DNA of 32,000 bases. Source: Cereibacter sphaeroides 2.4.1 (GTDB taxonomy: Bacteria > Pseudomonadota > Alphaproteobacteria > Rhodobacterales > Rhodobacteraceae). Each line of letters opens with the position of its first letter. Position 1 is the stretch's first letter. Shown here one piece after another: positions 1,214 to 25,825 of the stretch. The stretch covers positions 120,001 through 152,000 of the forward strand of contig NC_007493.2 of assembly GCF_000012905.2 (NCBI RefSeq). Direction: 5' to 3'. The notes under the pieces were generated by a model. The model saw nothing but the letters and a program-made list of their open reading frames with translations. It ran no database searches and was not told the origin of the DNA. Both the position numbers and the translations under genes were made by a program.

Positions 1214-2746
1214 TCAGAAGGCGAAATAGAGGAACTCGGCGGGCGGACTGCCGAAGATGCGCAGCAGGGTGATGCAGAGCACCGCCCCCACCATCAGCCC
1301 GTGCGTCGGCGAGGGCTTCCAGTAGAAGGCGGCGAAACGGGCCCGCTCGCGCGCGGGTGCCTTCGGCGCGGTGTGGGCCTTCAGCCCCACCCATTCCTGC
1401 GTGTTCGGCAGCGCCCAGATGATGAAGAGCCCGAACAGCACCACCACCGTATCGCCGAGATAGAGATAGCCGCCGTGCTCGCCCATCCCGGCGAGGCCAC
1501 GCACCACCGTCAGGGCGTCGGTGAGGGTGGGCGACTTGAAGAAGACGAAGCTCACCGTCACCGCAAGGAAGGTCACCAGCACCTTGACCGGCGACAGGAG
1601 CGACGAGAGCGGCGCAGGGATCCGGGCCCGTCCCGCTGAGGTCGCGCGCCAGCCGTGGTTCGCGACCAGCATGGCCCCGTGCAGCAGCCCGAAGACGATG
1701 AACTGCCAGCCCGCCCCGTGCCAGACCCCGGCAAGGCCCATGGTCACCAGCGTCGGGAAAGCGAGCATCACGAGGAAGGGCAGCACCTGCGGCTTGCGGG
1801 GATTCCAGACCGGCTGGCCGCGCTCCATCCGCCGGCGCATCACGGTCTTGGTGATCGGGTTGTAGAGATAGGCCGTCAGGAAGCGCGTGAGCGTGATGTG
1901 CCAGCGCGACCAGAATTCGATGATCGTCTGCGACTTGTAGGGCGAGTCGAAGTTGAAGGGCAGCAGGATCCCGAACATGAGCCCGAGGCCGATGGCCATG
2001 TCGGAATAGCCAGAGAAGTCGAAATAGAGCTGGAGCGCGAAGGCCACCGCGCCCCGCCAGGCGAAGGCGAGATAGGCGGCCTCGCCCCCCGCGGCCAGAT
2101 CCCAGAGCGGCTGGGCGAGTGGCGCCAGCGTGTCGGCCATGCCGATCTTCTTGAACAGTCCGAAGCAGAAGACGGTGAAGCCCAGCACCAGCTTGGCCTG
2201 ATCGATGCGGAAGGTCTCGTCCCGCTCGATCTGGGGCACGATCTCGCGGTAATGCACGATCGGCCCGGCGATCAGCTGCGGGAAGAAGGTGATGAACATC
2301 GCATAGCGGATCGGGTTCGGCCGCCCGATCCGGCCCTCGTGGCAATCCACCAGATAGGCGATCTGCTGGAAGGTATAGAACGAGATCGCGAGCGGCAGCA
2401 GGATGTGCGGCACCGGCACGTCCGCCGCGGTCAGGGCGTTCAGGATCTCGACCAGGAAGCCCGCATATTTGAAGAAGCCGATGGCCGCGAGATTGGCGGC
2501 CACCCCCGCAAGCAGGAGCCACCGGCGCGGCGTCTCGACCAGCATGATCCCGAGCAGGTAGTTCAGCCCCAGCGAGATCAGCAGCATCGGCAGGAACGCG
2601 ACGTTCCACCAGCCGTAGAAGAAGAGCGAAGCCGCAACCAGCCAGCCCACGGCCCAGAGCTTGTTCGGAAGCCTGCCCAGGAGATAATAGCCGAGAAGGC
2701 TCAACGGCAGGAAGGCGAACAGGAACTCCGGGCTGTGGAACAGCAT
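1214..2746 (-). CDS. MBOAT-family membrane O-acyltransferase (AlgI/DltB-like) with extra C-terminal helices ending in FLYFAF
   Basis: The N-terminus MLFHSPEFLFAFLPL is typical of AlgI/DltB. MBOAT motifs FWSRWHITLTRFLTAYLYNP and GVWHGAGW are present and the protein is polytopic and hydrophobic. Its ATG overlaps the upstream carrier-protein stop (TGATG). Confidence 0.9.
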   Translation of the reverse strand: MLFHSPEFLFAFLPLSLLGYYLLGRLPNKLWAVGWLVAASLFFYGWWNVAFLPMLLISLGLNYLLGIMLVETPRRWLLLAGVAANLAAIGFFKYAGFLVEILNALTAADVPVPHILLPLAISFYTFQQIAYLVDCHEGRIGRPNPIRYAMFITFFPQLIAGPIVHYREIVPQIERDETFRIDQAKLVLGFTVFCFGLFKKIGMADTLAPLAQPLWDLAAGGEAAYLAFAWRGAVAFALQLYFDFSGYSDMAIGLGLMFGILLPFNFDSPYKSQTIIEFWSRWHITLTRFLTAYLYNPITKTVMRRRMERGQPVWNPRKPQVLPFLVMLAFPTLVTMGLAGVWHGAGWQFIVFGLLHGAMLVANHGWRATSAGRARIPAPLSSLLSPVKVLVTFLAVTVSFVFFKSPTLTDALTVVRGLAGMGEHGGYLYLGDTVVVLFGLFIIWALPNTQEWVGLKAHTAPKAPARERARFAAFYWKPSPTHGLMVGAVLCITLLRIFGSPPAEFLYFAF

Positions 2747-2991
2747 CAGGCGGCCTTCTTGTCCCGGATCAGGGCCACGAAATCACCGACGTTCTTCAGA
2801 TCTTCGAGTTCGGACGACCTGAACGAGACGCCGAAGCGCATCTCGGAGGCGACGACGATGTTGATGTGGTTGAAGCTGTCCCACTCGGCCACGTCATGCG
2901 CGGAGAGGTCGGGGGTGGCCACCAGCTCGGGATCGTCGAACACCTGCCGGAGGATGGAGGTCAGGCCGTCGTAAATCTCGGGGTCGGTCAT
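2746..2991 (-). CDS. Small acyl/peptidyl carrier protein (DltC-like, phosphopantetheine attachment Ser in EWDSFNHI)
   Basis: 81 aa and acidic, with a DS(F/L) carrier-protein motif. GAGGAG lies upstream of the ATG. It is translationally coupled to the MBOAT. Confidence 0.85.
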   Translation of the reverse strand: MTDPEIYDGLTSILRQVFDDPELVATPDLSAHDVAEWDSFNHINIVVASEMRFGVSFRSSELEDLKNVGDFVALIRDKKAA

Positions 2992-3051
2992 GAAGGTCTC
3001 CTCGGGTTCGTCGTCGGTCGCCTGCGGCGGAGCGCGCCGCCGGAGGCAGGG

Positions 3052-4965
3052 TCAGTGGGTCACGCCGCGCTCGGTCAGCCGGATATGCGGCGGGGGCGGC
3101 GGCGGCACAGCCAGATCGAGCCGCCAGAGCGCCGCAAGGCCGTCGGCGCCCGCCGGCGCGAAGCCCAGCCGCGGGAAGAGATCGGCGACCATGCCGTTCT
3201 TGGGCGTCGGCCGGTAGCAGCCGACGACCGTCGAGGCGCCGGCCTGCCGGGCGGCGCGCGCGATGACGGCGGCCACCGCCTCCTCGACCCTTCGTCCCAG
3301 CACGCGGCAACTCATGAGCCAGGTGTCCACCTCGAACAGCTGGCCGCCCTCCCCATCGGGGCGCAGCCGGCCCAGCACCACGGAGACGATGCCGTTGTCG
3401 CCGAACCGATCCTTCAGCCGCACGCAGAAGGTGAGCATCCCCGGATCGCCGATCATCGCCCCCACCTCTGCCTCGGTGTAGCGCCGGGTGGTCAGGTTGA
3501 ACTGGTTCGTCTTGTTGATGAGCTGCGTCACCCGCACTAGATCGACGGGCTGCACCGGCCCCACCTGCATCTCCATGTCGAGCCCGGCGAGGAAGCTCTC
3601 CATGTCGGGAGCCACCACCTCGAGCTGGCGCCGCGCGGCATTGGCCGCATATTGCTCGGCCCGCAGCGCGTCGTCGGGCGTGTAGCCCACCGCCTCGAAG
3701 AGACCGGCGGCGGCAAGGCAGCGGATGTAGGTTTCGGGCTCCTCGGGCACTTCCGGCACGGCCACGGCCGGGAACTGTTCGCGCAGAAGCGCCCGCTCGG
3801 CCGGGTTGTCGTCGAAGAAGACCAGCGCCTCGAGCCCGAGGTTCAGCTCCTGTGCGATGCGCTGCAGGCCCTGGCCCTTGTCCTCCCAGTTGGCCACGAA
3901 GGCCGCGAAGTCCGACCGGCGCAGCACCATCTCGGGATGATCGAAGGCGGCGAGCGCGCGCTCGGGATCGTTCTTCGAGCTGACGGCAAGCAGGATGCCC
4001 CGCTCGCGCAGCGCCCGGCAATAGAGCTGGAAGGCCTTGAAGGCCTCGCCCCGCGCCGAGCCCTCGCCGATCACGATCCCCTCGATGCCGTCGTCGCCGA
4101 TCACCCCGCCCCAGAGCGTGTTGTCGAGATCGAGCACCAGCACCTTGCGGGTCAGGCCGCGCATGGCGGCGAGGATCCGCGCCACCTGATCGCCGAACCA
4201 CGGCCCCGCCGCAGGGCTCACATGCTGCTTGGCATGGAGCCACATGAGCCGGTCCTGCAGCGCGTCGAGCCCTTCGGCCTCGGCCGCGGCGACCGGATCG
4301 AGGATCAGCACCCGCTCCTCGCGGGCGGCGCGGATCAGCCGGTGCTGCATCTCGGCCACCATGGCCCGGCGCGCGGCGGGGATCAGCCGGTCGAGATGAC
4401 CGAAGACCGGATCGGTCGTCGGCACCGGAAGCTGCTGGATCACCGCGGCGCCTATCGCCCGAAGCGCGCGCCAGCGGTGGACGGTCTCGGACAGGCTCGC
4501 CTCGAGCGCCGCCTCCACCTCATCGGGCGGGGTGGCCAGCGGCAGTTGCGGCACGAGATCCGTCTCGCAGGAGCAGATCAGCACCGCATCGGGCCTGAAG
4601 GCCGCCAGTTCGGAGGCGGGATCGAGGATCGCCTGCCGCCACTGACCGTAGGGCGGCACATGAACCTCGAGCGCGAGGCCGCGGCGGAGCGCGCCCACGG
4701 TCAGACCCGGCACCAGATGCTCGACGGTGAAGGAGCCCAGAAGCGCGAGCCGCAGCCGCGGCACTTCGGGCGGGGCCTTGGCCGTGCGGAGAGCCCGTTC
4801 GATCCGGGTGGTCTGGAGGAAGTCGATGCGGTGCCCGGCCAGATGCCGCAGGGCGCGCCAGGCCTCGGGCGGATCGTCGGCAGCCCGTGTGCGGGCCCGG
4901 GCCAGATCGCCCTCGAAATCCGCCGCGACCGGCAGCCAGTGCAGTTCAAGCGGTTTGCTTTTCAT
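3052..4965 (-). CDS. FkbH-like / HAD superfamily subfamily IIIC protein with C-terminal GNAT-like region
   Basis: The signature LVLDLDNTLWGGVIGDDGIEGI (DxDxT HAD motif in the FkbH context) is present, and the 637-aa multi-domain length is typical of the family. A strong SD (GGAGGTGGAG) precedes the ATG at 4965. Confidence 0.85.
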   Translation of the reverse strand: MKSKPLELHWLPVAADFEGDLARARTRAADDPPEAWRALRHLAGHRIDFLQTTRIERALRTAKAPPEVPRLRLALLGSFTVEHLVPGLTVGALRRGLALEVHVPPYGQWRQAILDPASELAAFRPDAVLICSCETDLVPQLPLATPPDEVEAALEASLSETVHRWRALRAIGAAVIQQLPVPTTDPVFGHLDRLIPAARRAMVAEMQHRLIRAAREERVLILDPVAAAEAEGLDALQDRLMWLHAKQHVSPAAGPWFGDQVARILAAMRGLTRKVLVLDLDNTLWGGVIGDDGIEGIVIGEGSARGEAFKAFQLYCRALRERGILLAVSSKNDPERALAAFDHPEMVLRRSDFAAFVANWEDKGQGLQRIAQELNLGLEALVFFDDNPAERALLREQFPAVAVPEVPEEPETYIRCLAAAGLFEAVGYTPDDALRAEQYAANAARRQLEVVAPDMESFLAGLDMEMQVGPVQPVDLVRVTQLINKTNQFNLTTRRYTEAEVGAMIGDPGMLTFCVRLKDRFGDNGIVSVVLGRLRPDGEGGQLFEVDTWLMSCRVLGRRVEEAVAAVIARAARQAGASTVVGCYRPTPKNGMVADLFPRLGFAPAGADGLAALWRLDLAVPPPPPPHIRLTERGVTH

Positions 4966-5686
4966 CGCTCTCCACCTCCTCAGCCAGATGAATGTCCTGC
5001 ACCGTCCCGGCGGGGGGCGGTGCGTCGAGCGCGGCGACGAGCGCCTGCGCCACGCGTTCAGGGGACAGGAACCTGCCTCCGGCGTCGGCCCGGGCGCGCT
5101 CCAGCAGGCGCGGGTCGAAGGCGCCGAGCATCGGCGTCTCGACGAAGCCGGGGGCCACCACGCTCACCCGCAGCCCCGCGGGCCCCAGTTCGGCGGCGGC
5201 CGCCGCGAGCAGGGCGCGCAGCGCCGCCTTCTGCGCCACATAGGCGGCCATGTGGCGGGCCACGGGCGGCTCGGACGCGGCCGACAGGACGGCCAGCACA
5301 TGCCCGCCGCCCGCGCGCCGCCACCAGAGCCGCCAGGCCGTGGCGATCAGCGCGTGACAGCCGGCAAGCGCCGCCGCCTGAAGCGCCAGATCCTCGCCCT
5401 GACGCCCGAAGGGCGCCACGAAGGGCGCGGGCCAGGCGCAGAGCGCGAGTGACGCGGGCGGCTCGGGAAGTGCTGCCAGCGCGGTCTCGAGCGCTGCGGG
5501 ATCCTGAAGCGGCAGCGCCAGCGGCTCGGCCCGTCCGCCCGCCTGCGTGATCTCGGCGGCAAGGGCCCGGGCCCGTCCGGCCCCCGCGCCGTAGCCGACC
5601 CACACCGGGTGCTGCCGGGCCGCGATCCGGCAGAGTGCGCCACCGATGGCGCCGCTGCCGCCCGTCACGAGGAGCCCACCGGTCAC
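4946..5686 (-). CDS. Short-chain dehydrogenase/reductase (SDR)
   Basis: Rossmann motif VTGGSGAIGGA and catalytic YVAQK (YxxxK). It has a GTG start that overlaps the upstream stop (GTGA), and its 3' end overlaps the FkbH-like start by 20 nt. Confidence 0.85.
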   Translation of the reverse strand: MTGGLLVTGGSGAIGGALCRIAARQHPVWVGYGAGAGRARALAAEITQAGGRAEPLALPLQDPAALETALAALPEPPASLALCAWPAPFVAPFGRQGEDLALQAAALAGCHALIATAWRLWWRRAGGGHVLAVLSAASEPPVARHMAAYVAQKAALRALLAAAAAELGPAGLRVSVVAPGFVETPMLGAFDPRLLERARADAGGRFLSPERVAQALVAALDAPPPAGTVQDIHLAEEVESDEKQTA

Positions 5687-6087
5687 TCGGCCGCCTCGCG
5701 GGCAGACCGCGGTTCGGGCAGCAGGGTCATGGCCTCGCCCTCGGCGATGCGCCGGCCGCCGGCCGAGATCGTCAGGCGGATGAGCCGGATGCCGAGAGGC
5801 GGCGTCTCGTGCTTCACCTCGGCCTCGAGCTGCGCGCGTTCGCCCACGAGGAGCGGCCGGCGGAACTTCATCGTCAGCGATTGCCAGACGCAGCCATGCC
5901 CCGGCAGCGCCGTGCCGAGCAGCCGGGACACTTCGGCGATCAGCAGGCCGCCATAGACGATGGGGCCGTCGAATCCCCTTTCGCGGGCGAAGAAGGTGTC
6001 GAAGTGGATGGGATTGTCGTCCCCGCTGATGGAGCGAAAGGCCTCCATCCGATCGGTGGTCACGGTGAAATCGAACGCTATCGTCAA
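5683..6087 (-). CDS. MaoC-like (R)-hydratase/dehydratase hotdog-fold protein
   Basis: The conserved SGDDNPIHFD motif and hotdog-length core are present. I favour the in-frame TTG at 6087, which is preceded by GAGG at 6-nt spacing. The ORF-track start at 6246 adds about 50 basic, low-complexity residues across an AT-richer promoter-like stretch. Confidence 0.75.
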   Translation of the reverse strand: MTIAFDFTVTTDRMEAFRSISGDDNPIHFDTFFARERGFDGPIVYGGLLIAEVSRLLGTALPGHGCVWQSLTMKFRRPLLVGERAQLEAEVKHETPPLGIRLIRLTISAGGRRIAEGEAMTLLPEPRSAREAAE

Positions 6088-6364
6088 ATTGCGCCTCGAA
6101 TCGAATTCATGTCGCAGCGAAGCCGCCGCAAGTCGTTGATCAAAAAAACGGAGCTGCAAATGCGGGCGCAGCCGGGGGTAGAGCCTATAGGAAGCAGGAT
6201 ACCACGAGCTTTGTTCCCCAATCGAACTTTTTTTCCTCCGCCTCAAGAAAGCGCTCGCTCTGCGGCCAAGGGCGCGTATCTTTCCCGGAGTGACCCGGCG
6301 CCGATTTGTCGGTGGGCCTTTCCTCAGGCCGGGCGCGGTTTGTTGAGATTGAAGGCAGCTTGGG

Positions 6365-7279
6365 ATGAGAAGTTATATTCTGTCCGCCGCCGCAGGCATG
6401 GTCCTGATGGCAGGTGCACTAGCGGCGGCCTTCACGGCGGCTGCGGCGATCTGGCCCGACAAGATGCCGCCGCCCGCGATCTCGGGCAGCATCGCGACCG
6501 ATGAGAAGCTGAAATATCTGCGCGACCGCGGGCGGGAGCCGGTGGATGTCCTTGCTATCGGGTCCTCCATCACATGGAAGCATCTCGACGGCGCGCCGTT
6601 CGACGGCCGGGTGGGCAATTTCGTGAACGGCGGCACGGCCTATCTTCAGGTGCATGAGATCCGAACCTTCACCCGCTTCTATCTGGACCTCTATCCCCGG
6701 ATCTCGCAGGTGGTGATGCTGAGCGCGCTGCCCGACTACGGCACCTGCGCGGGAGAAGGGCGGATCATGGATCTCGAGGATGCAGCCTCCTACGTCCGCG
6801 GCCGTATGCCGGAAGCCTGGTTCTACATGCGCTATTTCGCCCCCCTCCGCTACGTCCTGCAGGCGCGGCGGCGGTCCGAGCGGCTGAAGCCCTACGATGC
6901 CTTCGGCTACTGGCTGGACCGGCACGGCACGACGCCCTCGATGCTGCCGACCGAGGTGGGCTACGACCTGCGCTACGACGAGATCGCGCTCGATCCCGCC
7001 TGCCTCGAGGCGCTCGACGGGCTGAACCGCGATCTCACGGCGCGGGGCGTGACCTTCACGCTGGTGATGACCCCGGTCGCGCCGCGCTATTCCGACCTCC
7101 ACCCGGCCACCACGCGGGCGACCGAGCGGATCGAGAGCTTCGCGCGCAGCCGGGGGATCCGGCTTATCGACTTCTTCGGCGATCCTTCCTTCGAGGACGC
7201 CGATTTCTGGGATGCCTTTCACATGCAGTGGCCGGCAGCCCGCCGACTGTCGCGCGAGGTGGCAGATACACTTCTCTGA
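6365..7279 (+). CDS. Membrane-anchored SGNH/DltD-like (AlgX/AlgJ-like) acyl-transferase/esterase candidate
   Basis: An N-terminal TM anchor (ILSAAAGMVLMAGALAAAFTAAAAIW) is followed by a block-I-like LAIGSSIT, an FVNGG element and a C-terminal DAFH (DxxH) motif. It is divergent from the MBOAT operon. Confidence 0.6.
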   Translation: MRSYILSAAAGMVLMAGALAAAFTAAAAIWPDKMPPPAISGSIATDEKLKYLRDRGREPVDVLAIGSSITWKHLDGAPFDGRVGNFVNGGTAYLQVHEIRTFTRFYLDLYPRISQVVMLSALPDYGTCAGEGRIMDLEDAASYVRGRMPEAWFYMRYFAPLRYVLQARRRSERLKPYDAFGYWLDRHGTTPSMLPTEVGYDLRYDEIALDPACLEALDGLNRDLTARGVTFTLVMTPVAPRYSDLHPATTRATERIESFARSRGIRLIDFFGDPSFEDADFWDAFHMQWPAARRLSREVADTLL

Positions 7280-7357
7280 CCCGTTTCAGCGGGCCGCCCG
7301 GACCGCCGCGACAGACCCCGGGTTTCATTCCGACCGAAGATTGACAGGAGCATTTGC

Positions 7358-8131
7358 ATGAAGGCCGTATTGCTTGCGGGTGGCTATGGAACGCGGTTGA
7401 GCGAGGAGACGGGCATCGTCCCGAAACCCCTCGTCGAGATCGGCGGTCGGCCGATCCTGTGGCACATCATGAAGATCTACGCCGCGCACGGGATCACCGA
7501 TTTCGTGATCTGCTGCGGCTACAAGGGTCACATGATCAAGGATTATTTCCTGAGCTACTTCCACCGCAACAGCGACATCACGATCGACGTCCGCTCGAAC
7601 CAGATCGAGCTGCACCGTCCCGTGTCCGAGCCGTGGCGCGTGACGATGGTCGATACCGGGCTCGAGACCATGACCGGCGGGCGGATCAAGCGCATCCGCG
7701 AGCATATCGGCGACGAAACCTTCTGCCTGACCTATGGCGACGGTGTCTCGGACATCGACATCGGCAGCCTCGTGGCCTTCCACAAGGAGCAGGGCGTGGC
7801 AGGCACCGTCACCGCCGTGCGACTGCCCGGCCGCTTCGGCGCGCTCGACCTGTCGGAAGGCACGCGGGTCAACCGGCTGCGCGAGAAGAGCATGATGGAC
7901 GGCCAGACCATCAACGGCGGCTTCTTCGTCCTCGAACCTTCGGTCTTCGACTATATCGACGGCGATGCCACGGTCTGGGAGGAAGAGCCGCTGCAGGGCC
8001 TCGTCCGCGACGGCCAGCTCGCGGTCTACCGCCACGAAGGCTTCTGGCAGAACATGGACACGCTGCGCGACAAGACGCTGCTGCAGGGTCTGTGGGAGAA
8101 GGGCAAGGCCCCCTGGAAGATCTGGGACTGA
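7358..8131 (+). CDS. rfbF: Glucose-1-phosphate cytidylyltransferase
   Basis: [41 protein letters not shown] and its 257-aa length are collinear with RfbF. Confidence 0.9.
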
Positions 8132-8366: not shown

Positions 8367-9374
8367 CTACCACTGCAGGCTCTCGGCCTCGCGGTTGGGC
8401 AGCACCGCCAGGAACCGCAGCGGCATGGCGGGCACGAGCCCCGGGTCCAGCGCCGCGAGCTTCCAGGTGAGCGAGAGCGTCGGCACCCGGCCCTGCAGGA
8501 GCGCGCGCAGGAAGAGGTAGCTGTAGGCGCGGCGATAGCGGCGGATGCGGTCGGCCACCGTCCGGCGGTCGGACGCCGTCAGCGAGAGCCGCCGGCCGAC
8601 CGTGTGGAAGAACATCAGCATGTAGCCGGTGCGGTCCACCACCTTGGTGGATTTCCAGTCGAACGCGTCGAAATAGACGTTCACGCCCCGGCCGCAGAGC
8701 ACGTTCATCTTCCAGGACACGACGGTGCGCGCCCCGGCCGCGATCAGCGACAGCCAGAAGAGCTGGTCCTCGCCGGCGTTCCGCAGCCGCGGGTCGAAGC
8801 GCAGCGTCTCGACGAAGCTCTGCCGCACCACGACCGTCGAGGTCTGGCTGAGGTAGGTATCGACCGACGCCGCCATGATCGAGGGCTGGTCGAAGGCCAG
8901 GATCGGCGCCTCGGCATCGAGCACGGTGACGCCCGCGTGCCGCTCCTCGCGCATCCGGCGCAGGGCGGGGGTGCGCTCGAAATAGGTGATGTCGTCGTCG
9001 GTGCGCTGGTGGTCGCAGAAATGGAAGTCGTAGCCGCGCGCGAGCAGATCGAGCGCATCCGCGAGATGGGTGGGCTGCCAGATGTCGTCGGAATCGAGGA
9101 AGGCCACATGGTCGAAGCCCTCTGCCGCCACGGCATCGAGCCCCGCGTTCCGCGCGGCGCCGGGGCCGCCGTTCTTCTGGGCGATCAGCCGCACGGGAAC
9201 CTTGCCCTGCCGCCCCTCGACCTCGGACCGGGCGGACACGGGGGACTCGTCGTCGATGACGAAGACGGTGAGGCTATGGCCTTCGGGAAGGATCTGCCCA
9301 TCGACCGAGTCGAGCGCGCGAGAGAGGATCCCCGCCTCCCGCTGATAGAAGGGGATGATGACTGCGGTTCTCAT
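8367..9374 (-). CDS. Family 2 glycosyltransferase
   Basis: The GT2 N-terminus MRTAVIIPFYQRE, VFVIDDESP and a DSDD (DxD) motif are present. I chose the internal ATG at 9374 (AGGAC upstream) over the track start at 9437. Confidence 0.85.
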   Translation of the reverse strand: MRTAVIIPFYQREAGILSRALDSVDGQILPEGHSLTVFVIDDESPVSARSEVEGRQGKVPVRLIAQKNGGPGAARNAGLDAVAAEGFDHVAFLDSDDIWQPTHLADALDLLARGYDFHFCDHQRTDDDITYFERTPALRRMREERHAGVTVLDAEAPILAFDQPSIMAASVDTYLSQTSTVVVRQSFVETLRFDPRLRNAGEDQLFWLSLIAAGARTVVSWKMNVLCGRGVNVYFDAFDWKSTKVVDRTGYMLMFFHTVGRRLSLTASDRRTVADRIRRYRRAYSYLFLRALLQGRVPTLSLTWKLAALDPGLVPAMPLRFLAVLPNREAESLQW

Positions 9375-9715
9375 GCTGAAAAGTCCTGAAGCAAATGTCT
9401 CTGTCAATGAATCTCGGGGCCGCGGCGGGGGCGCCACAGCCGCCCAGCGTCCGAACAGCCGTAACGGCCATGTTATCCAGAGAGCCGGGGCCGAGACAAA
9501 CGCTTTTCCGCCTCGCCCATGCGCCGGGCCGAGGCTCCGCCCAGAAGGATGGCGCGCTCCGGGTCAGGGCCCCGACCGATACCACTGTGCGCCTGCCGGG
9601 CGCTCGCCGGATGAGCCGCCCGGCCTGCCATCCCGCCCGGCGCCACACCGAGGCTTTTAAAGACGACCGTGACGGGCAAAGAGGCCGGGAGTGCAGCATC
9701 GCGGTTAGTCGCTGT

Positions 9716-10810
9716 TCAGTAGCCGGTCATCTCGAGATAGCCCCGCCCGGTATGGCTGCCCCGGATCGCGATGGGGCCTTCCCAGTAGGGCACGGAGGTG
9801 TCCATCCAGGCGCGGTCGTTCATGGCCTCCACCGTCACATCGAGCCCCTTCTCGGGCAGTGCCACCCGCCATTCCACCGGGATCTTCCGCACCGTCACCT
9901 CGGCCGCGCGCCCCGGCGTCACTTGGAGGGCGCCGGGCGGCATCGGTTCGGGCCGGCCTTCGGGCGAGATCCAGGTGGCGCTGGTGTAGCCCTCTCCGCC
10001 GTCGCGGAGGCGGAAGCCCATCAGCCGGGCCCCGTCGTCGAACATGAGCGAGAACCAGTCCCAGCCGGTCTGGTCCTCGGCGAGCGGCTGCGAGGACCAT
10101 TCCCGGTCGAGCCAGGCCTTGCCGGTGACCGCGATGCTCTTGCCCTCCACCTCGATCCGGCCCTCGACCCGGTAGAAGGGCTGGGAATAGTACCAGCTCG
10201 CCTGCCCCGCCGCCGACTTCACCGAATAGCCCTGCTCGCCCTGCGCGACGAGCGGACCCTCGGCCTTGAGCCGCAGATCGTAGGAAAAGCCGGATCCCGA
10301 GGCGGCGAGCGAGAGCGCCGACAGCGCATCCGCGCCGGGGGAGGCGGTGCCGGTCATGTGCCAGTCGTCGATCCAGGCCTCGAAGGGCTCGGCCGTCACG
10401 CCCGCCTGCCCGATCCCGCCGCGCCCGTAGCGCTCGGCCACGAAATGCCGGTCGGGCGTGGTCAGGGCCGCATGGCCGAGCCAGAGCTGCGGGCTCTCCC
10501 AGCCCGCCCCCTCGTGCGGGGCCAGCGCCGAGCGGAACAGCGTCCACTGGATGCCGTAGTCGCGCCCGTCCTCGCCGGTCAGGACCGAGGTCAGATACCA
10601 CCATTCGATGCGGTACTCGGGATGGGGCCCGTGATCGCGCGGAAAGACGAGCGGCCGGCCCCGCTGCGGCGTGGCGAAGCCCTCGGCCGTGGCGCCGAGG
10701 CCGGCGAAGCCCTGTGCCCCTGCGGGCGCGGTGTGGCCGAGCGTCACGAGAAGGATCGCCGCCGCGATGCGAAGGGCGAAGCGGAAGGGGGAAAGCCTCT
10801 CAGCGTTCAT
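9716..10810 (-). CDS. Secreted AttH-like / CrtC-domain lipocalin-like protein
   Basis: A signal peptide (LRIAAAILLVTLGHTAPAGAQG) is followed by DHGPHPEYRIEWWYLTSVL, typical of the AttH/hydroxyneurosporene-synthase-like family. The ATG at 10810 has GAGGG 9 nt upstream; the alternative TTG is at 10816. It overlaps the permease 3' end. Confidence 0.8.
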   Translation of the reverse strand: MNAERLSPFRFALRIAAAILLVTLGHTAPAGAQGFAGLGATAEGFATPQRGRPLVFPRDHGPHPEYRIEWWYLTSVLTGEDGRDYGIQWTLFRSALAPHEGAGWESPQLWLGHAALTTPDRHFVAERYGRGGIGQAGVTAEPFEAWIDDWHMTGTASPGADALSALSLAASGSGFSYDLRLKAEGPLVAQGEQGYSVKSAAGQASWYYSQPFYRVEGRIEVEGKSIAVTGKAWLDREWSSQPLAEDQTGWDWFSLMFDDGARLMGFRLRDGGEGYTSATWISPEGRPEPMPPGALQVTPGRAAEVTVRKIPVEWRVALPEKGLDVTVEAMNDRAWMDTSVPYWEGPIAIRGSHTGRGYLEMTGY

Positions 10811-13187
10811 TGGCAAAGACCCTCAGGAGGTCGGCCGGCCGCAGCCGGGCCAGGCGCCGCACCGGCACGGCGGCGGCGAGCGCCGCGGCCACGAGGGCCA
10901 GCGTGCCGAGCGTGAGCCAGTCGAGCGGGAAGACATGCATGGGCAGGCGCCAGCCGAAGGCCTGCACATTGACCACCGCCAGCAGCACCCAGGCGAGGGC
11001 CAGCCCGAGCGGCAGGGCCGCGGCCATCGTGCCTGCCGCCAGAAGGAGCGTGCGGAGCATCTCGAGCCGCGCGAGCCGCGCCTTGGTCAGCCCCATGGCC
11101 CAGACGGGGGCCAGCTGCGGCAGCCGCATCCCCGACAGGACCATGAGGCTTGCGAACATGGCAAGCCCCGCCACCCCCAGCGTCAGCACATTGAGCGCGG
11201 CCGTCACGGCGAAGGTGCGCTCGAACACCTGCAGCGAGAAGCCCTTGAGGCTCGCCTGATCGATCAGCCCCTCGTCGCCCAGATCGAAGGCCGTGCGCAT
11301 CTCCTCGGCCAGCGCGGCCGCGCGGTCGGGGGCCACGCGGATGCCGTAGCGCCGCCGCTCGGCCTCGGGGTGCAGCGCGAAGAAACGGTCGAGGCCCAGG
11401 ATCACCTGCGCCGAAGGGTTGCCGTAATCGCTGTAGACGGCCGCGATCCGCCCCTGCCAGCCCGGCAGGCGGATCGGATCGCCCGGCTCCAGCCCCTCGC
11501 GGCGGGCGAGCTGTTCGTTGACGAGCGCCCAGTCGCCGCCCGCGAGCAGGTCCCACACGCCCGGCACCTCGGCCAGCAGCGGCCAGTTCTCGCGGTAGGT
11601 CGGATGGTCCGCCATGCCGTAAAGCTGCGCGGGCTGGCCCAGCACCTCGGTCTCGGCCCGCACGATGGGCAGCACCGCCTCGGCCCGCGGCTCGAGCCAG
11701 CGCACGACCCGGTCCGCGGTGTCCCGATCGGGGGCGCTGAGATAGAGCTCGAAGGCGAGGCGCTGGTCGAGCCATCCGGTGAAGGTCAGCCGGAAGCTCG
11801 AGACCATGGTGCCAACGCCGATATTGGCCGCAAGCGCAAGGAGGAGCGCCATCAGCGCGAGCGAGAGGCCGGGCAGCTGCTGGCGCGTGTCGGCCCAGAA
11901 CCACTGCGCGATGGGCCCGCGTGCGAGCCCCTGCGCCCCCCGCAGGAGGGCCGCGAGCAGCACGGGCAACAGGAGCGCTGCGCCCAGAAGCAGCGCCGCG
12001 AGCAGCACGAAGGCCGCGACGATCCCCCGGCCCCAGAGCAGGAGGACGCCCGCGAGGATCAGGAGGCCCACCGCCGCCATCGCCTGCCGCCAGAGCGCCC
12101 GCTCGGAGGCCACGGCCCAGGCGCGGGGCTGGGCGGGGGCCAGTAGCGGCAGATGGGCCACGCGCCAGAGGCTCTGGGCCGAGGAGACGAGGGTGCCCAG
12201 AAGCGCGATCCCGAGCCCGGCCGCGGCCCATCCCGGGCGGAAGGCGAGCGTGCCCGGCACCTCGGCGCCGTAGAGGCCGCGCAGGGTCGCCGCCACATCG
12301 GGCAGCAGCAGCGCCGCCACCAGATAGCCGAGCAGGAGGCCGGCCGCGCCCGCGAGTAGCGCGAAGAGCAGGAGTTCCGCGAAGAGAAGTCCGATCAACG
12401 TCCGTGCCGTGACGCCAAGCGCGCGGAGGGTTCGAAACATCGGGCGGCGCTGCTCGAAGGCGAGCCCGATGGCGGAATGGACTATGAAGAGGCCCACGGC
12501 AAAGGAGAGAAGCCCGAAGGCGGTGAGGTTCAGGTGAAAACTGTCGGTGAGCCGCGCCACGTCGCTCTCGCTGTCGGGCGGGATGAGGCGTAGCCCATCG
12601 GGCAGGGGCCCCGGCTGCGGCGCCGCGGGATCGAGGAGGAGATGCGAGATCCGCCCCTCCATGCCCAGAAGCCTCTGCGCCTGCCCGATATCCATGAGCC
12701 CGGTGCCGGGGGGCAGCCCTTCGGCCGCGCGCATCGGCGGCAGCTCCGCGCCCTGCATCCGCGCCAGCGTCTCGGGGTCGGCGAAGATCAGCCCCGGCGC
12801 GGTCAGGAAGGGCAGCAGCGCGTCGCCCTCGCCGAACTCGACCTGCCGGGCCGGGGCGGGCAGGGTCAGCGGGTCGATCCCGATCAGGCGCAGGCTCCGC
12901 CGCTCGTCGATGCGCAGCCGCCCTTCGACCACCGGCGAGACGCGCCAGCCTGCCCGGCGCAGGGCGACGTAGGTCTCCTGCGGCACAGGCCCCTCGGCCG
13001 CGATCCGGCTCAGCCGATCCTGCCCGAGCGTCGCCGCGGCTTGGGCATAGCTCGCCCGTGCCTCGGCATTGATCGCCTGCACCCCCGACCAGAGCGCCGT
13101 GGCGAGCGCGAGCCCCAGAAGCAGCATCGCAAGCTGCAGCGGGCTCCGCCGCCAGTGCGAGAGCAGCGCCGCCAGCGCGGTGCTCAT
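10800..13187 (-). CDS. ABC transporter permease with duplicated FtsX-type domains
   Basis: It is large and polytopic, with two FtsX-like hydrophobic blocks separated by soluble domains. The ATG at 13187 (MSTALAALLSHWRR) forms an ATGA overlap with the ATPase stop. The track start at 13487 adds an Arg/Pro-rich shadow extension. Confidence 0.85.
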   Translation of the reverse strand: MSTALAALLSHWRRSPLQLAMLLLGLALATALWSGVQAINAEARASYAQAAATLGQDRLSRIAAEGPVPQETYVALRRAGWRVSPVVEGRLRIDERRSLRLIGIDPLTLPAPARQVEFGEGDALLPFLTAPGLIFADPETLARMQGAELPPMRAAEGLPPGTGLMDIGQAQRLLGMEGRISHLLLDPAAPQPGPLPDGLRLIPPDSESDVARLTDSFHLNLTAFGLLSFAVGLFIVHSAIGLAFEQRRPMFRTLRALGVTARTLIGLLFAELLLFALLAGAAGLLLGYLVAALLLPDVAATLRGLYGAEVPGTLAFRPGWAAAGLGIALLGTLVSSAQSLWRVAHLPLLAPAQPRAWAVASERALWRQAMAAVGLLILAGVLLLWGRGIVAAFVLLAALLLGAALLLPVLLAALLRGAQGLARGPIAQWFWADTRQQLPGLSLALMALLLALAANIGVGTMVSSFRLTFTGWLDQRLAFELYLSAPDRDTADRVVRWLEPRAEAVLPIVRAETEVLGQPAQLYGMADHPTYRENWPLLAEVPGVWDLLAGGDWALVNEQLARREGLEPGDPIRLPGWQGRIAAVYSDYGNPSAQVILGLDRFFALHPEAERRRYGIRVAPDRAAALAEEMRTAFDLGDEGLIDQASLKGFSLQVFERTFAVTAALNVLTLGVAGLAMFASLMVLSGMRLPQLAPVWAMGLTKARLARLEMLRTLLLAAGTMAAALPLGLALAWVLLAVVNVQAFGWRLPMHVFPLDWLTLGTLALVAAALAAAVPVRRLARLRPADLLRVFANER

Positions 13188-13864
13188 GCGACCCGCCCCG
13201 CCGAGAGCTGCACCCGGCCCTGAAGCCGCCCCGCGAGGCGGGCCGAATGGGTGACCATCAGAAGCCCGGCGCCCGTCTGGCTCACGAGGCGCAGGAAAAG
13301 CGCCATGACGGCATCGCCCGTGGCCTCGTCGAGGTTGCCGGTGGGCTCGTCGGCCAGCACGAGGCGGGGGCGGGCGGCAAGCGTCCGGCCGATGGCCACC
13401 CGCTGCTGCTGGCCGCCCGAGAGCTGCTCGGGATAGCGGTGCAGGCAGGCGGCAAGCCCCAGCGTCTCGGCCAGCTCGGCCTGCCATTGGGGATCGTGCC
13501 GACCGGCGAGGCGGGACTGAAAGGCAAGATTGGCCGCCACGTCGAGCGAGGGGATCAGGTTGAACTGCTGGAAGACGAGCCCGACCGTGCCCCGCCGCAG
13601 ACGCGCGCGCTCGGCATCGCCGGCCTGCGAGATATCATGGCCCGCCACGACGATCCGGCCCGCGTCCGCCGCATCGAGCCCGGCCGCCAGATGCAGGAGC
13701 GTGCTCTTGCCGCTGCCCGACTCTCCCGTCAGCGCGAGGCTCTCGCCCGCGGCGAGCGTCAGGTCCACCCCGGCCAGAACCTGCACCGGCCCCTCGCCGG
13801 TCGCGTAGCTTTTGGTCACGCCCTCGAGCGAGAGCAGCTTGTCCGAAGGATCCTTCACCCGCAC
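13184..13864 (-). CDS. ABC transporter ATP-binding protein (LolD/MacB-like)
   Basis: Walker A GESGSGKST, signature LSGGQQQRV and Walker B LVLADEPT are present. The GTG at 13864 lies 8 nt after GGAAGGAAGG. The maximal ORF extends to 13915. Confidence 0.85.
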   Translation of the reverse strand: MRVKDPSDKLLSLEGVTKSYATGEGPVQVLAGVDLTLAAGESLALTGESGSGKSTLLHLAAGLDAADAGRIVVAGHDISQAGDAERARLRRGTVGLVFQQFNLIPSLDVAANLAFQSRLAGRHDPQWQAELAETLGLAACLHRYPEQLSGGQQQRVAIGRTLAARPRLVLADEPTGNLDEATGDAVMALFLRLVSQTGAGLLMVTHSARLAGRLQGRVQLSAGRVA

Positions 13865-14149
13865 CGTCCACACCTTCCTTCCGGCAGCCCCCGCCGGCTG
13901 GCCCAGAGGTAGCACGGCGGATCCGGGACGCCAGAGCCCGCGCTCTCACGAGATGGTGGCGCAGGCACCGCCGGCGCCCGAAGAGGATGGCGCTGCCGGC
14001 GGCCGCTCCCGGAGTGTGTGCGGGAGCTGGAAAATGCGAGGAAGAACCCCTCGGCCAAGGCCGGTCCTCGGGGGCGCAGGCCCCGGCACGCCCGGAGGTC
14101 GGGGGCCAGGGTGTCGCCCGAGGCGGTCCTCCCGCGGACGCTGCGGCCG

Positions 14150-23430: not shown

Positions 23431-24267
23431 TCAGCGGCCGAAGGCGCCGGGGCCGCGGAGCTTCGCGTGGCGGTTCACATCCTTGTAGAGCAGGTAGCGG
23501 AAGGGACCGGGCCCCGCCGCATAGCAGGCCTGCGGGCAATAGGCGCGCAGCCACATGAAGTCGCCCGCTTCCACCTCGACCCAGTCGCGGTTGAGCTTGT
23601 AGACCGCCTTGCCCTCGAGCACGAAGAGCCCGTGTTCCATCACATGGGTCTCCTCGAACGGGATGAGCCCGCCCGGCTGGAAGGTCACGATGTTCACATG
23701 CATGTCGTGGGCGAGATCGGCGGGATCGACGAAGCGCGTGGTGGCCCAGCGGCCGCCCGTGTCCGGCATGGCCATGGGGGCGATCTCGCGCTCGTTGGTG
23801 ACGAAGGCCGCGGGCGGGGCCACGCCGGGTGCCGGCTCGTAGAGCTTGCGCACCCAGTGGAAGCGGGCGGGCTCATGGCTGCCATTGTGCAGCCGCCAGC
23901 GGCAGCCCGCGGGAATATAGGCATAGCCGCCCGGCCCGAGCTCGTGCTCCTGCCCGTCGAGCGAGAGCCAAACCTCGCCGTGGGTGACGAAGAGCACCGA
24001 CTGCGCCCCGGCCTCTGGCTCGGGCGCGTCCGAACCGCCGCCGGGGGCCACCTCCATGACATATTGCGAGAAGGTCTCGGAGAAGCCGGTCATCGGGCGG
24101 GCGATCATCCAGAGCTTCGTCTGGCTCCAGCCGGGCAGCGCGCTCGTCACGATGTCCGAGAAGACGCCGCGGGGAATGAAGGCATAGGCCTCGGTGAAGA
24201 CGGCCCGGCCGGTCATGAGCCGGGTCTGGGGCGGCAGGCCGCCCATGGGAGCGTGGTAGGAGGTCAT
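23431..24267 (-). CDS. allE: (S)-ureidoglycine aminohydrolase (bicupin)
   Basis: [32 protein letters not shown]..., 278 aa, in a purine-catabolic context. It has an ATGA overlap with the upstream gene. Confidence 0.85.
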   Translation of the reverse strand: MTSYHAPMGGLPPQTRLMTGRAVFTEAYAFIPRGVFSDIVTSALPGWSQTKLWMIARPMTGFSETFSQYVMEVAPGGGSDAPEPEAGAQSVLFVTHGEVWLSLDGQEHELGPGGYAYIPAGCRWRLHNGSHEPARFHWVRKLYEPAPGVAPPAAFVTNEREIAPMAMPDTGGRWATTRFVDPADLAHDMHVNIVTFQPGGLIPFEETHVMEHGLFVLEGKAVYKLNRDWVEVEAGDFMWLRAYCPQACYAAGPGPFRYLLYKDVNRHAKLRGPGAFGR

Positions 24268-25679: not shown

Positions 25680-25825
25680 CGGAGGCTCCTTCTTCCCGCG
25701 GGCGGGCCCGTGCAGGAAAGCGGGAAGCGGCGGCGCCCGCAAGCCCCTCCGGACGGGGCGCCGCGGCGGCCCTCGCATCCCGCGCCGAAAGGCGGCAGTC
25801 TGGCCTCCTCAGACAGGAGGATGCG

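Follow-up and report, generated by a model that had tools for sequence, protein, structure and literature searches.

The window analyzed here is a 32,000-nucleotide stretch of the Cereibacter sphaeroides 2.4.1 genome (contig NC_007493.2, positions 120,001 to 152,000), and all coordinates are counted from its first letter. An earlier note on this DNA had described six open reading frames (ORFs), five on the minus strand diverging from one on the plus strand, together with four junctions between them, and all of these were found in the sequence. In the order of transcription, the minus-strand genes encode a MaoC-type (R)-specific hotdog dehydratase (5683–6087; 134 amino acids, TTG start), a classical, ketoreductase-like SDR (4946–5686; 246 amino acids), an FkbH-type loader (3052–4965; 637 amino acids), a dedicated acyl carrier protein (ACP; 2746–2991; 81 amino acids), and an MBOAT-family membrane acyltransferase (1214–2746; 510 amino acids). 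The MaoC/SDR junction reads GTGA, the SDR and FkbH genes overlap by 20 nt, and a 60-nt gap upstream of the carrier-protein gene holds a GAGGAG ribosome-binding site. The carrier-protein stop overlaps the MBOAT start in TGATG and, judging from this overlap, the two genes are translationally coupled. Profile searches upheld the families named in the note for these five products, and no adenylating DltA-type enzyme is encoded within the block, as the note had also claimed.

The divergent intergenic region (6088–6364, read from sequence) separates this operon from the SGNH and rfbF genes and presumably holds the promoters of both units. It has A/T-rich tracts, and the 1-kb intervals spanning 6001–8000 have the lowest G+C in that part of the window (0.63–0.65); a search of the region for a sigma-70 consensus gave no match, a result that is uninformative for C. 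sphaeroides. The plus-strand gene for a membrane-anchored SGNH-fold protein (6365–7279; 304 amino acids) is probably co-transcribed with rfbF (7358–8131, plus strand), which encodes a glucose-1-phosphate cytidylyltransferase (TIGR02623, 423 bits against a cut-off of 300) that would provide CDP-glucose to build the presumed acceptor glycan. A family-2 glycosyltransferase (GT2) of 356 amino acids follows on the minus strand (8367–9437; PF00535, E 3.6e-17) and is a probable associated glycan-building step. A second C. sphaeroides lineage, whose outer flank differs, also retains rfbF and the GT2 gene together with the block. In one other C. sphaeroides assembly, indels disrupt the reading frames of the SDR and SGNH genes, which may reflect assembly error or decay.

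The FkbH product scored 283 bits against TIGR01686 (cut-off 146.65) and 60 bits against the HAD-IIIC profile TIGR01681 (cut-off 35.75). It consists of an N-terminal FkbH_N domain (PF21211), a HAD-IIIC phosphatase domain with residues D279, D281, S330, K363, and D385, and a GNAT-like C-terminal domain carrying the invariant S552-C553-R554. In Foldseek searches with its AlphaFold model (pLDDT 87), the N-terminal and HAD domains matched 3SLR at a TM score of 0.85, as well as HAD phosphatases, and the C-terminal domain matched GNAT acetyltransferases. Identity to natural-product homologues is 27–38% (~34% for a tetronate-type homologue and ~30% for short PKS-type proteins). Envelope-type FkbH proteins make up a separate group of considerable size (at least 7,994 relatives at E ≤ 1e-10). 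Elsewhere, in aeruginosin-type assembly lines, glycerate is loaded by FkbH (PMC10143770), and a passage of PMC7901079, citing Zhang et al. (2011), lists an FkbH loading module as yielding D-lactate-ACP.

The carrier protein gave only weak carrier-domain matches, to Pfam PP-binding (E 0.0077) and an NCBIfam ACP profile (1e-8), and its match to DltC reaches only E 0.005. The note required a modifiable serine, and Ser39, within W37-D-S-F-N-H42 (nucleotides 2866–2883), is the predicted phosphopantetheine-attachment site; across 25 homologues, W37 and S39 never vary and D38 is nearly invariant (≥90%). Its nearest solved relative is the Geobacter metallireducens ACP 2LML (E 3.7e-18), and it is a member of that protein's WDSxxH/N family.

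The MBOAT matches PF03062 (E 5.9e-20 in a Pfam profile search), and its residues 115–404 align with DltB (6BUG), so that the catalytic His343 (codon at 1718–1720) faces DltB His336. About 100 additional C-terminal residues include two hydrophobic segments (428–446 and 483–501) and end in F505-L-Y507-F-A-F510 (1217–1234), an FxYxxF motif. All of 35 aligned FkbH- or ligase-linked MBOATs retain H343, H356, F505, Y507, and F510, and the motif is kept in 34 of 39 FkbH-linked MBOATs. In related systems, the acyl group is relayed as an acyl-Tyr on FxYxxF and then as an acyl-Ser on the SGNH partner (PMC12148441). In Dlt systems the motif belongs to DltX, and in PatA/AlgI-type MBOATs it forms part of the acyltransferase itself; its position at the MBOAT C-terminus therefore suggests a relay of the fused PatA/AlgI kind rather than the DltX kind.

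The 304-residue product gave no match in a Pfam search. It begins with a hydrophobic helix (residues 2–29), and a 12-sequence alignment of its family revealed invariant G-S-S67, N88 (in N88-G-G), and D283-A-F-H286. The best Foldseek matches to its AlphaFold model (pLDDT 87.8) were all SGNH/GDSL proteins, with DltD (E 9e-4) and PatB (3e-3) lower down. The helix, the model, these matches, and the invariant Ser, Asn, Asp, and His bear out the SGNH fold that had been claimed, and indicate a membrane-anchored SGNH-fold protein, for which we propose the role of a periplasmic acyl-Ser transferase. The label "DltD-like" thus stands for fold and proposed role but not for sequence, since the protein is not a DltD-family member. 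Its family comprises ~1000 clusters at 50% identity among 1.84 billion proteins, and homologues adjoin FkbH-ACP-MBOAT genes in 14 loci.

The SDR matches adh_short (E 9e-18), its top NCBIfam matches being FabG-like and all under cut-off, and it retains T8-G-G-S-G-A-I-G, the S135 region, and Y149-x-x-x-K153. The hotdog protein matches MaoC_dehydratas (PF01575, E 3.2e-14) and carries the hydratase-2 motif S-G-D-D-N-P-I-H at 6004–6024. The MaoC gene is likewise called at 134 residues in another strain, and the 53 upstream codons of a longer ORF, an A/T-rich stretch, are probably noncoding.

Conservation was surveyed in 80 species-level genomes picked by FkbH similarity alone (41–56% identity). A carrier protein lies within 600 nt of FkbH in 75 of them and an MBOAT is found in the same locus in 48, in several gene orders, so the cluster recurs in other genomes, as the note's reading required; 20 FkbH-ACP loci with adequate flanks hold no MBOAT. 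Most of the 48 MBOAT loci have an extracytoplasmic SGNH-type partner. In 33 this neighbor comes from one of three unclassified membrane-anchored GxS...H SGNH-like families, weakly related to each other (hhalign E 2e-4 at best), and the remaining loci include ALGX or GDSL partners. MaoC and SDR occur together, separate or fused, in 12 of the 80 loci and are optional tailoring parts. The module is found in lineages that include Alpha-, Beta-, and Gammaproteobacteria, Acidobacteriota, one cyanobacterium, Elusimicrobia, and Myxococcota, and because the association recurs across phyla, it is more than chance. The commonest neighbor families of the FkbH loci are GT4, GT2, sugar-nucleotide epimerase/RmlD, AsnB, and exosortase, although glycan genes lie near only part of these loci and amount within the window to rfbF and one GT2. 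The closest full orthologue cluster adjoins Wzx and CDP-sugar genes, and in a Rhodospirillaceae genome a 62%-identical rfbF lies near the orthologous cluster, beside a Wzx flippase.

Taken with the mechanisms of its relatives, this homology, residue conservation, and synteny make it reasonably likely that the block specifies a transmembrane pathway that depends on a carrier protein to O-acylate an envelope glycan. What the carrier bears is probably glyceryl or lactyl, a hydroxy-acid of three carbons. FkbH would take 1,3-bisphosphoglycerate onto Cys553, its HAD domain would strip the 3-phosphate, and the glyceryl group would pass to the phosphopantetheine arm at carrier Ser39. By analogy with some polyketide loading modules, MaoC and SDR would convert glyceryl-ACP to lactyl-ACP: the dehydratase would remove the 3-hydroxyl to give an enol-pyruvoyl and then pyruvoyl-S-ACP, whose 2-oxo group the SDR would reduce to yield lactyl-S-ACP. 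Glyceryl is the probable core acyl group, with lactyl only where both enzymes are present; in the many related loci that lack them, glyceryl itself would be transferred. At the cytoplasmic face, the carrier protein would hand its acyl group to the MBOAT, which, through His343 catalysis, would deliver it to Tyr507 of its own FLYFAF at the periplasmic face. Ser67 of the SGNH protein (triad with His286 and Asp283) would then accept it, and the protein would place it as an ester on a glycan hydroxyl, in the periplasm or at the outer surface. RfbF (CDP-glucose) and GT2, inherited together with the block, probably contribute to this acceptor and point to LPS/O-antigen or exopolysaccharide; the surface glycans of C. 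sphaeroides are not known to bear lactyl or glyceryl esters. The conserved eight-gene block encodes no other acyl acceptor enzyme. The Dlt-like envelope acylation put forward in the earlier note is thus largely supported by conservation, SGNH fold, carrier serine, and MBOAT motif. A literature search found no paper describing an FkbH-carrier-MBOAT-SGNH system.

The identity of the loaded unit and that of the acceptor each admit another reading. With the same architecture and relay, FkbH could load a unit other than a glycolysis-derived C3 one, such as another acyl phosphate or phosphorylated hydroxy-acid, which MaoC and SDR would tailor. The low identity to natural-product homologues, the size of the separate envelope-type group, and the search for a close solved or assayed relative, which found only the uncharacterised 3SLR, favor this idea. 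We consider it unlikely, given a TIGR01686 score almost double the cut-off, HAD residues and a Ser-Cys-Arg motif that do not vary among envelope-type, tetronate-type, and short natural-product homologues, and a long form sharing its full-length architecture with a tetronate-operon FkbH; a MaoC and KR beside FkbH also fit the known glyceryl-to-lactyl logic. Equally improbable is an acceptor that is a membrane lipid, lipoprotein, or small secreted glycolipid, in a lipid or natural-product tailoring pathway. Many loci lack glycan genes among their nearest neighbors, some FkbH-ACP loci adjoin MprF or LPG-synthase-like genes, and MBOATs of cyanobacterial peptide clusters acylate small molecules. 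Against this, the block resembles polymer-acylating pairs in having an extracytoplasmic partner of SGNH or ALGX type, the FxYxxF relay has so far been described for polymer acylation, and glycan genes are the commonest neighbors; rfbF and GT2 are co-inherited with the block, and a sister module in Geobacter is part of an LPS-core operon.

Least probable is that the MBOAT-SGNH pair is an ordinary PatA/PatB- or AlgI/AlgJ-type O-acetyltransferase dependent on acetyl-CoA and that FkbH, ACP, dehydratase, and ketoreductase serve a separate cytoplasmic step, e.g., amino-sugar N-acylation, the two sharing a glycan rather than acyl flow. A fused FxYxxF is indeed typical of the acyl-CoA-using MBOAT class, non-Dlt MBOAT/SGNH pathways are described in the literature as lacking carrier proteins, and FkbH-ACP pairs exist without an MBOAT. 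Yet the conserved block contains no cytoplasmic acyltransferase able to use acyl-ACP, the translationally coupled ACP and MBOAT are adjacent in 48 of the 80 loci, in several gene orders and across phyla, and members of this ACP family and MBOAT subfamily also adjoin one another where the loader is an adenylating enzyme.

Read as an envelope O-acylation pathway, the block appears to be a so far uncharacterised relative of Gram-positive Dlt (DltA, DltC, DltB, DltX, and DltD), with related blocks in many Gram-negative phyla. On this reading, both systems begin with a cytoplasmic loader acting on a small carrier protein, use an MBOAT with a conserved His to carry the acyl group across the membrane, and pass it through the FxYxxF Tyr to a membrane-anchored SGNH-fold transferase that forms the envelope polymer ester. 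Whereas Dlt uses the adenylating DltA, D-alanine, and the DltX microprotein, the C. sphaeroides block has an FkbH-type HAD/GNAT loader, probably a C3 hydroxy-acid, and a shuttle motif fused to the MBOAT in place of DltX. Its MBOAT falls under the DltB cut-off (TIGR04091, 173 bits against 375), its carrier is ACP-like, its SGNH protein has no DltD Pfam match, and its host lacks teichoic acids. The Gram-negative setting, the extra C-terminal MBOAT helices ending in FxYxxF, and a separate periplasmic SGNH-type transferase are shared with the O-acetylation pairs PatA/PatB (peptidoglycan), AlgI/AlgJ/AlgX (alginate), and WssH/WssI (cellulose). These pairs use acetyl-CoA without carrier or loader, in contrast to the dedicated ACP and loader of the C. 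sphaeroides operon, whose SGNH partner comes from an unclassified family, unlike PatB or ALGX.

Natural-product FkbH-ACP modules (methoxymalonyl-ACP, tetronates, and lactate/glycerate starters) resemble the block in FkbH domain layout, in catalytic residues, in having a neighboring ACP of their own, and in an optional dehydratase and ketoreductase. Their user is a PKS, NRPS, or FabH-like enzyme, while in C. sphaeroides it would be an MBOAT-SGNH export pair, and the context of C. sphaeroides-type modules is surface-glycan genes. A matching gene order downstream of the loader is seen in the LPS-core locus of G. metallireducens, arranged as Acs-like ligase–ACP (2LML)–MBOAT–ALGX protein. An LPS-biosynthesis role was reportedly proposed by Ramelot et al. 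in 2011 for a Geobacter ACP with a WDSLxH/N motif. The two modules share the ACP family (47% identity, WDSxxH), the MBOAT subfamily (42% identity, the Geobacter protein ending in SEFLYFQF), and an SGNH-superfamily partner. They differ in that the Geobacter loader is adenylate-forming, near acetate-CoA ligase (682 bits), rather than FkbH, its partner has a recognisable ALGX domain, and MaoC and SDR genes are absent. The Geobacter locus is the same module with an adenylating loader, likewise functionally uncharacterised, and this ligase-loaded sister independently indicates that the ACP family feeds the MBOAT subfamily.

The genes at issue are arranged divergently. On the minus strand, a MaoC-type hotdog protein of 134 aa with a TTG start (5683-6087; MaoC, E 3.2e-14) is followed by an SDR (4946-5686; adh_short, E 9e-18), an FkbH-like protein (3052-4965; TIGR01686, together with HAD-IIIC and FkbH_N), an 81-aa carrier protein (2746-2991; weak ACP signal in profile searches) and an MBOAT (1214-2746; PF03062, E 5.9e-20), and a 304-aa ORF diverges from them on the plus strand (6365-7279). 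All of these ORFs lie where the earlier note had placed them, and the junctions that it described were likewise seen: GTGA between MaoC and SDR, a 20-nt overlap between SDR and FkbH, TGATG between carrier protein and MBOAT, and a 60-nt gap before the carrier protein, which contains GAGGAG. The MaoC gene is called with an equal length of 134 aa in another strain. Profile searches bore out five of the six families that had been claimed (MBOAT, FkbH, SDR, MaoC and, weakly, ACP). The only glycan genes of the 8-gene block are rfbF (7358-8131, plus strand; TIGR02623, 423 bits) and a GT2 gene (8367-9437, minus strand), the remaining window being unrelated. No AMP-binding protein, and so no DltA-type ligase, occurs in the block, and an FkbH-type loader is found there instead.

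A sigma-70 promoter scan of the divergent region gave no match, a scan that is uninformative for a GC-rich alphaproteobacterium. The G+C content falls to 0.63-0.65 at 6001-8000 and 2001-3000 vs about 0.70-0.76 in flanking genes, a composition compatible with the horizontal acquisition of some of the block. Elsewhere in the window, the region 9716-13915 holds an ABC ATPase and an FtsX-type permease of 895 aa, whose end is overlapped by a two-lipocalin protein resembling CrtC (PF07143 and PF17186), a context that differs from that of carotenoid CrtC. A single minus-strand ORF at 24264-25778 joins a polysaccharide-deacetylase-like domain to an OHCU decarboxylase, a fusion that points to purine catabolism and bears no relation to the block.

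The putative loader exceeds the cut-offs of both relevant family models, with 283 bits against 146.65 for TIGR01686 and 60.2 bits against 35.75 for TIGR01681. In its predicted model (pLDDT 87), the N-terminal and HAD domains superpose on an uncharacterised Bacteroides protein (3SLR; TM 0.85), the HAD core also resembles Mg-dependent phosphatases, and the C-terminal domain has a GNAT-like fold. Two natural-product homologues, each from a plasmid record, were used for comparison. The longer one is 34% identical to the window protein over 89% of the length and belongs to a FabH-like/FkbH/ACP/PPTase operon typical of tetronate pathways; the shorter one (352 aa) adjoins ACP, acyl-CoA dehydrogenase and NRPS genes. 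When envelope-type proteins were aligned with both of these, D279, D281, S330, K363, D385 and S552-C553-R554 were invariant, so that the HAD motifs and conserved Cys of the FkbH family are present along with its domain model. From studies of OzmB/FkbH, Cys553 is taken here to be the acyl-transfer residue. By sequence and by analogy with relatives, the enzyme would use 1,3-bisphosphoglycerate to make glyceryl-S-ACP. A passage of PMC7901079, citing Zhang et al. (2011), lists FkbH loading modules as giving lactate-ACP.

The carrier protein contains the motif W37-D-S39-F-N-H42, and its family follows the pattern WDSxxH/N, with W37 and S39 invariant and D38 nearly invariant in 25 homologues. Among solved structures, 2LML comes nearest to it (E 3.7e-18, about 47% identity); this structure was traced to an ACP of Geobacter metallireducens. 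A Geobacter ACP with a WDSLxH/N motif was reportedly described by Ramelot and co-workers in Biochemistry in 2011, with a proposed role in LPS biosynthesis, and WDSLxH/N is presumably the name given in that work to the motif of this ACP type. The window protein has the features of such a four-helix ACP with a Trp-Asp-Ser-x-x-His/Asn attachment motif.

The gene for the 2LML protein sits in an LPS-core locus with WaaA, LpxK and heptosyltransferases of family GT9 (L084, from CP000148.1; 8378-12779), where the gene order is adenylate-forming enzyme, ACP, MBOAT and an ALGX-domain SGNH-like protein. The adenylate-forming enzyme is Acs-like, near acetate-CoA ligase (682 bits), and the MBOAT is 42% identical to that of the window and has the C-terminus SEFLYFQF. 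In gene content, the Geobacter locus has the same export core, equipped with a Dlt-like adenylating loader. This sister module independently shows the pairing of this ACP family with this MBOAT subfamily, and carrier protein and MBOAT together appear to be a reusable export core that takes different cytoplasmic loaders.

Residues 115-404 of the window MBOAT align with DltB (6BUG, E 1e-24), placing His343 opposite the catalytic His336. The protein scores 173 bits against the DltB equivalog model TIGR04091, below its cut-off of 375; the alignment thus indicates a real homology to DltB that does not amount to equivalog status. The protein continues for about 100 residues past the DltB-aligned part, a stretch that contains two hydrophobic segments, and its last six residues, F505-L-Y507-F-A-F510, match FxYxxF exactly. 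Dlt systems carry this acyl shuttle motif on a microprotein, DltX; in systems of the PatA/AlgI type it is part of the MBOAT itself (PMC12148441). It was found in 34 of the 39 MBOATs that adjoin FkbH genes in other genomes and likewise in the Geobacter and Sinorhizobium (S.) meliloti copies, and H343, H356, F505, Y507 and F510 are invariant in 35 relatives. The MBOAT therefore has both features expected of it in an MBOAT-SGNH pair, a conserved catalytic His and a C-terminal FxYxxF.

The third feature of such a pair is an SGNH-fold partner outside the cytoplasm with a catalytic triad, and the 304-aa protein, presumably periplasmic, supplies it (S67/H286/D283). An alignment of 12 homologues contains an N-terminal hydrophobic membrane helix and the invariant elements G-S-S67, N88-G-G and D283-A-F-H286, which correspond by position and residue to SGNH blocks I, III and V (Ser; Asn; Asp-x-x-His). 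An AlphaFold model built from the same alignment (pLDDT 87.8, pTM 0.86) retrieved SGNH/GDSL proteins as its best 25 Foldseek matches (E 3e-5 to 9e-4), with DltD (3BMA, 6O93; E about 9e-4) and PatB (8TLB; 3e-3) among the lower PDB matches. Because of the helix, the invariant residues, the model and the fold matches, the protein is identified as a membrane-anchored SGNH-fold protein, presumably oriented to the periplasm. No Pfam family was matched even at E<=10, in a Pfam copy that was without PF27429, and the sole match in Pfam and NCBIfam was a sub-threshold one to an SGNH octanoyltransferase model. With no sequence-family model matching it, the protein represents an unclassified SGNH branch. 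The description "DltD-like" in the earlier note thus stands for fold and presumed role but not for family membership, as the DltD Pfam model gave no match even at E<=10. A word-indexed search returned 13 matches, and an exhaustive profile search placed about 1000 clusters at 50% identity in the family among 1.84 billion representatives. For one homologue, P0129, the precomputed annotation gives PF27429.1, so that this SGNH-like family may have gained a Pfam model recently.

The comparison of gene neighborhoods proposed in the earlier note was made on 80 loci, one genome per species, picked by FkbH similarity alone (41-56% identity), and it upheld the association. A carrier protein is adjacent to FkbH in 75 of the 80 loci and an MBOAT is present in 48; of the other 32, 12 are interrupted by contig ends and 20 truly have no MBOAT. 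MBOAT-positive loci occur in Alpha-, Beta- and Gammaproteobacteria, Acidobacteriota, a cyanobacterium, Elusimicrobia and Myxococcota, with varying gene order. The usual neighbor of the trio is a protein with a membrane anchor, a G-(S/D)-S block close to its N-terminus and a His block close to its C-terminus. Proteins of three unclassified SGNH-like families fill this place in 33 loci, of which 14 have the family found in the window; other loci have an ALGX protein (E 1e-56), a GDSL protein or a DUF1574-like protein as partner. Profile-profile comparison of the three families by hhalign gave weak scores (E 2e-4, 0.0029 and 0.38), and they are therefore treated as analogous partners rather than as one proven family. 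The 20 FkbH-ACP pairs without an MBOAT within 4-10 kb are mostly from Acetobacteraceae (L021, L038, L040, L051-L059, L066-L076, L087), and no acyl-ACP-using partner was identified in these flanks. A Paroceanicella plasmid carries ACP-FkbH-methyltransferase-VOC near mprF.

MaoC and SDR accompany the system in 12 of the 80 loci, as separate genes or as one fused 508-aa protein, and 10 of these 12 include the MBOAT. Outside the genus, the nearest full orthologue is in a Rhodospirillaceae genome: a single co-directional run of MaoC-SDR-FkbH-ACP-MBOAT-SGNH, which has a Wzx flippase, a homologue of rfbF and genes for sugar modification as neighbors. Loci of the main MBOAT cluster each contributed their nearest non-core ORFs, four at most, to a sample of 124, in which GT4/GT1, GT2, sugar-nucleotide epimerases/RmlD, AsnB and exosortase were the most frequent families. 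On S. meliloti pSymB (L086, from CP140883.1; 4903-10782), the order is VOC, MBOAT (ending FLYQGF), membrane protein, ACP (WDSLSN) and FkbH. The 410-aa membrane protein there is labelled "TonB-dependent receptor", which looks like a mis-annotation; in strain 1021 the FkbH match is in two pieces.

Within C. sphaeroides, chromosome CP047037.1 encodes an MBOAT protein identical to that of the window, and the nearest FkbH relatives bear the name of this species. A second lineage (L090, 4732-12687) has the 8-gene block whole beside hslUV, as GT2-rfbF-SGNH divergent from MaoC-SDR-FkbH-ACP-MBOAT. Its proteins are 68-84% identical to those of the window and its outer flank is otsA/otsB, not the CrtC-like and ABC genes. 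Retention of the whole block despite this divergence and changed flank indicates that it behaves as a unit, and it appears to diverge or be exchanged as one, like variable surface-antigen loci. The CP047037.1 copy (L001 5472-7798 vs window 4946-7279) is 99.95% identical over 8.4 kb, with four single indels that disrupt the SDR and SGNH-like reading frames; these may be assembly errors, or the system may be decaying in that strain.

Homology, residue conservation, synteny and what is published on the mechanisms of relatives lead us to infer the following pathway. FkbH would capture 1,3-bisphosphoglycerate on Cys553, dephosphorylate it and pass the glyceryl group to the phosphopantetheine of Ser39. 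MaoC, which has the hydratase-2 motif GDDNPIH, would eliminate the 3-hydroxyl to give pyruvoyl-ACP, and the SDR, with its TGxxxGxG and YxxxK motifs, would reduce this to lactyl-ACP. The MBOAT, through His343, would then take the acyl group off the thioester and attach it to Tyr507 on the periplasmic side, from which Ser67 of the SGNH protein would take it up and esterify a glycan hydroxyl. Dependence of the MBOAT on the carrier protein is very likely, and the pathway as stated is, on balance, probable; the assignment of the final group in C. sphaeroides specifically as lactyl is tentative and falls rather short of probable.

The interpretation of the block in the earlier note, as carrier-protein-dependent envelope acylation with an FkbH-type loader, is supported and refined, and its underlying observation is confirmed. 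A broader proposal, which we place only just short of probable, is that FkbH-ACP-MBOAT-SGNH systems constitute a widespread Gram-negative class of carrier-protein-dependent transmembrane acylation, placing C3 hydroxy-acyl esters from glycolysis on LPS or exopolysaccharides, lactyl in systems with MaoC and SDR and otherwise glyceryl. Their MBOATs would be the first outside Dlt to be supplied by a carrier protein, and the systems would combine Dlt donor logic with the fused PatA/AlgI tyrosine shuttle and accept interchangeable loaders (FkbH, or the Acs-like ligase in Geobacter). If this is true, Gram-negative surface glycans bear glyceryl or lactyl esters derived directly from glycolysis, a chemical modification previously unassigned, which could influence phage and antibody recognition, biofilm properties and symbiosis. 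Gellan, which is produced by Sphingomonas, bears an L-glycerate ester. A function would also be proposed for thousands of proteins annotated as "HAD-IIIC family phosphatase" or "hypothetical protein". The system is present in tractable organisms, namely C. sphaeroides, S. meliloti (pSymB) and Stutzerimonas stutzeri. The literature on FkbH/HAD-IIIC with MBOAT or polysaccharides, and on MBOAT with ACP, SGNH and LPS, yielded no account of an FkbH-MBOAT system.

Two other readings of the block were weighed. A true Dlt orthologue would share the succession of loader, carrier protein and MBOAT, the tyrosine relay and the SGNH transferase, all of which the block resembles. Every Dlt-specific character is nevertheless missing: there is no DltA, the MBOAT lies below the DltB cut-off, no DltD-family match is obtained, and no DltX is present, FxYxxF being fused to the MBOAT C-terminus rather than carried on a separate protein. 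DltD itself resembles the 304-aa protein by fold only, and orthology is ruled out on these grounds. The other reading takes the MBOAT as an ordinary alginate- or PatA-type acetyltransferase that came to lie in the block by chance; synteny and the sister module of Geobacter speak against it, and it is ruled out.

The most fitting class for the system is MBOAT-SGNH envelope acylation with a carrier protein charged by an FkbH-type enzyme. The block conforms to the structural definition of the Gram-negative MBOAT-SGNH pairs and differs from them by its dedicated carrier protein and loader. Non-Dlt pathways of this kind are stated to lack a carrier protein and to use acyl-CoA (PMC12148441), a rule to which the block and its many relatives suggest an exception. 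With the natural-product FkbH-ACP modules it has the front end in common, but theirs feeds a synthase, whereas that of the block feeds an export pair.
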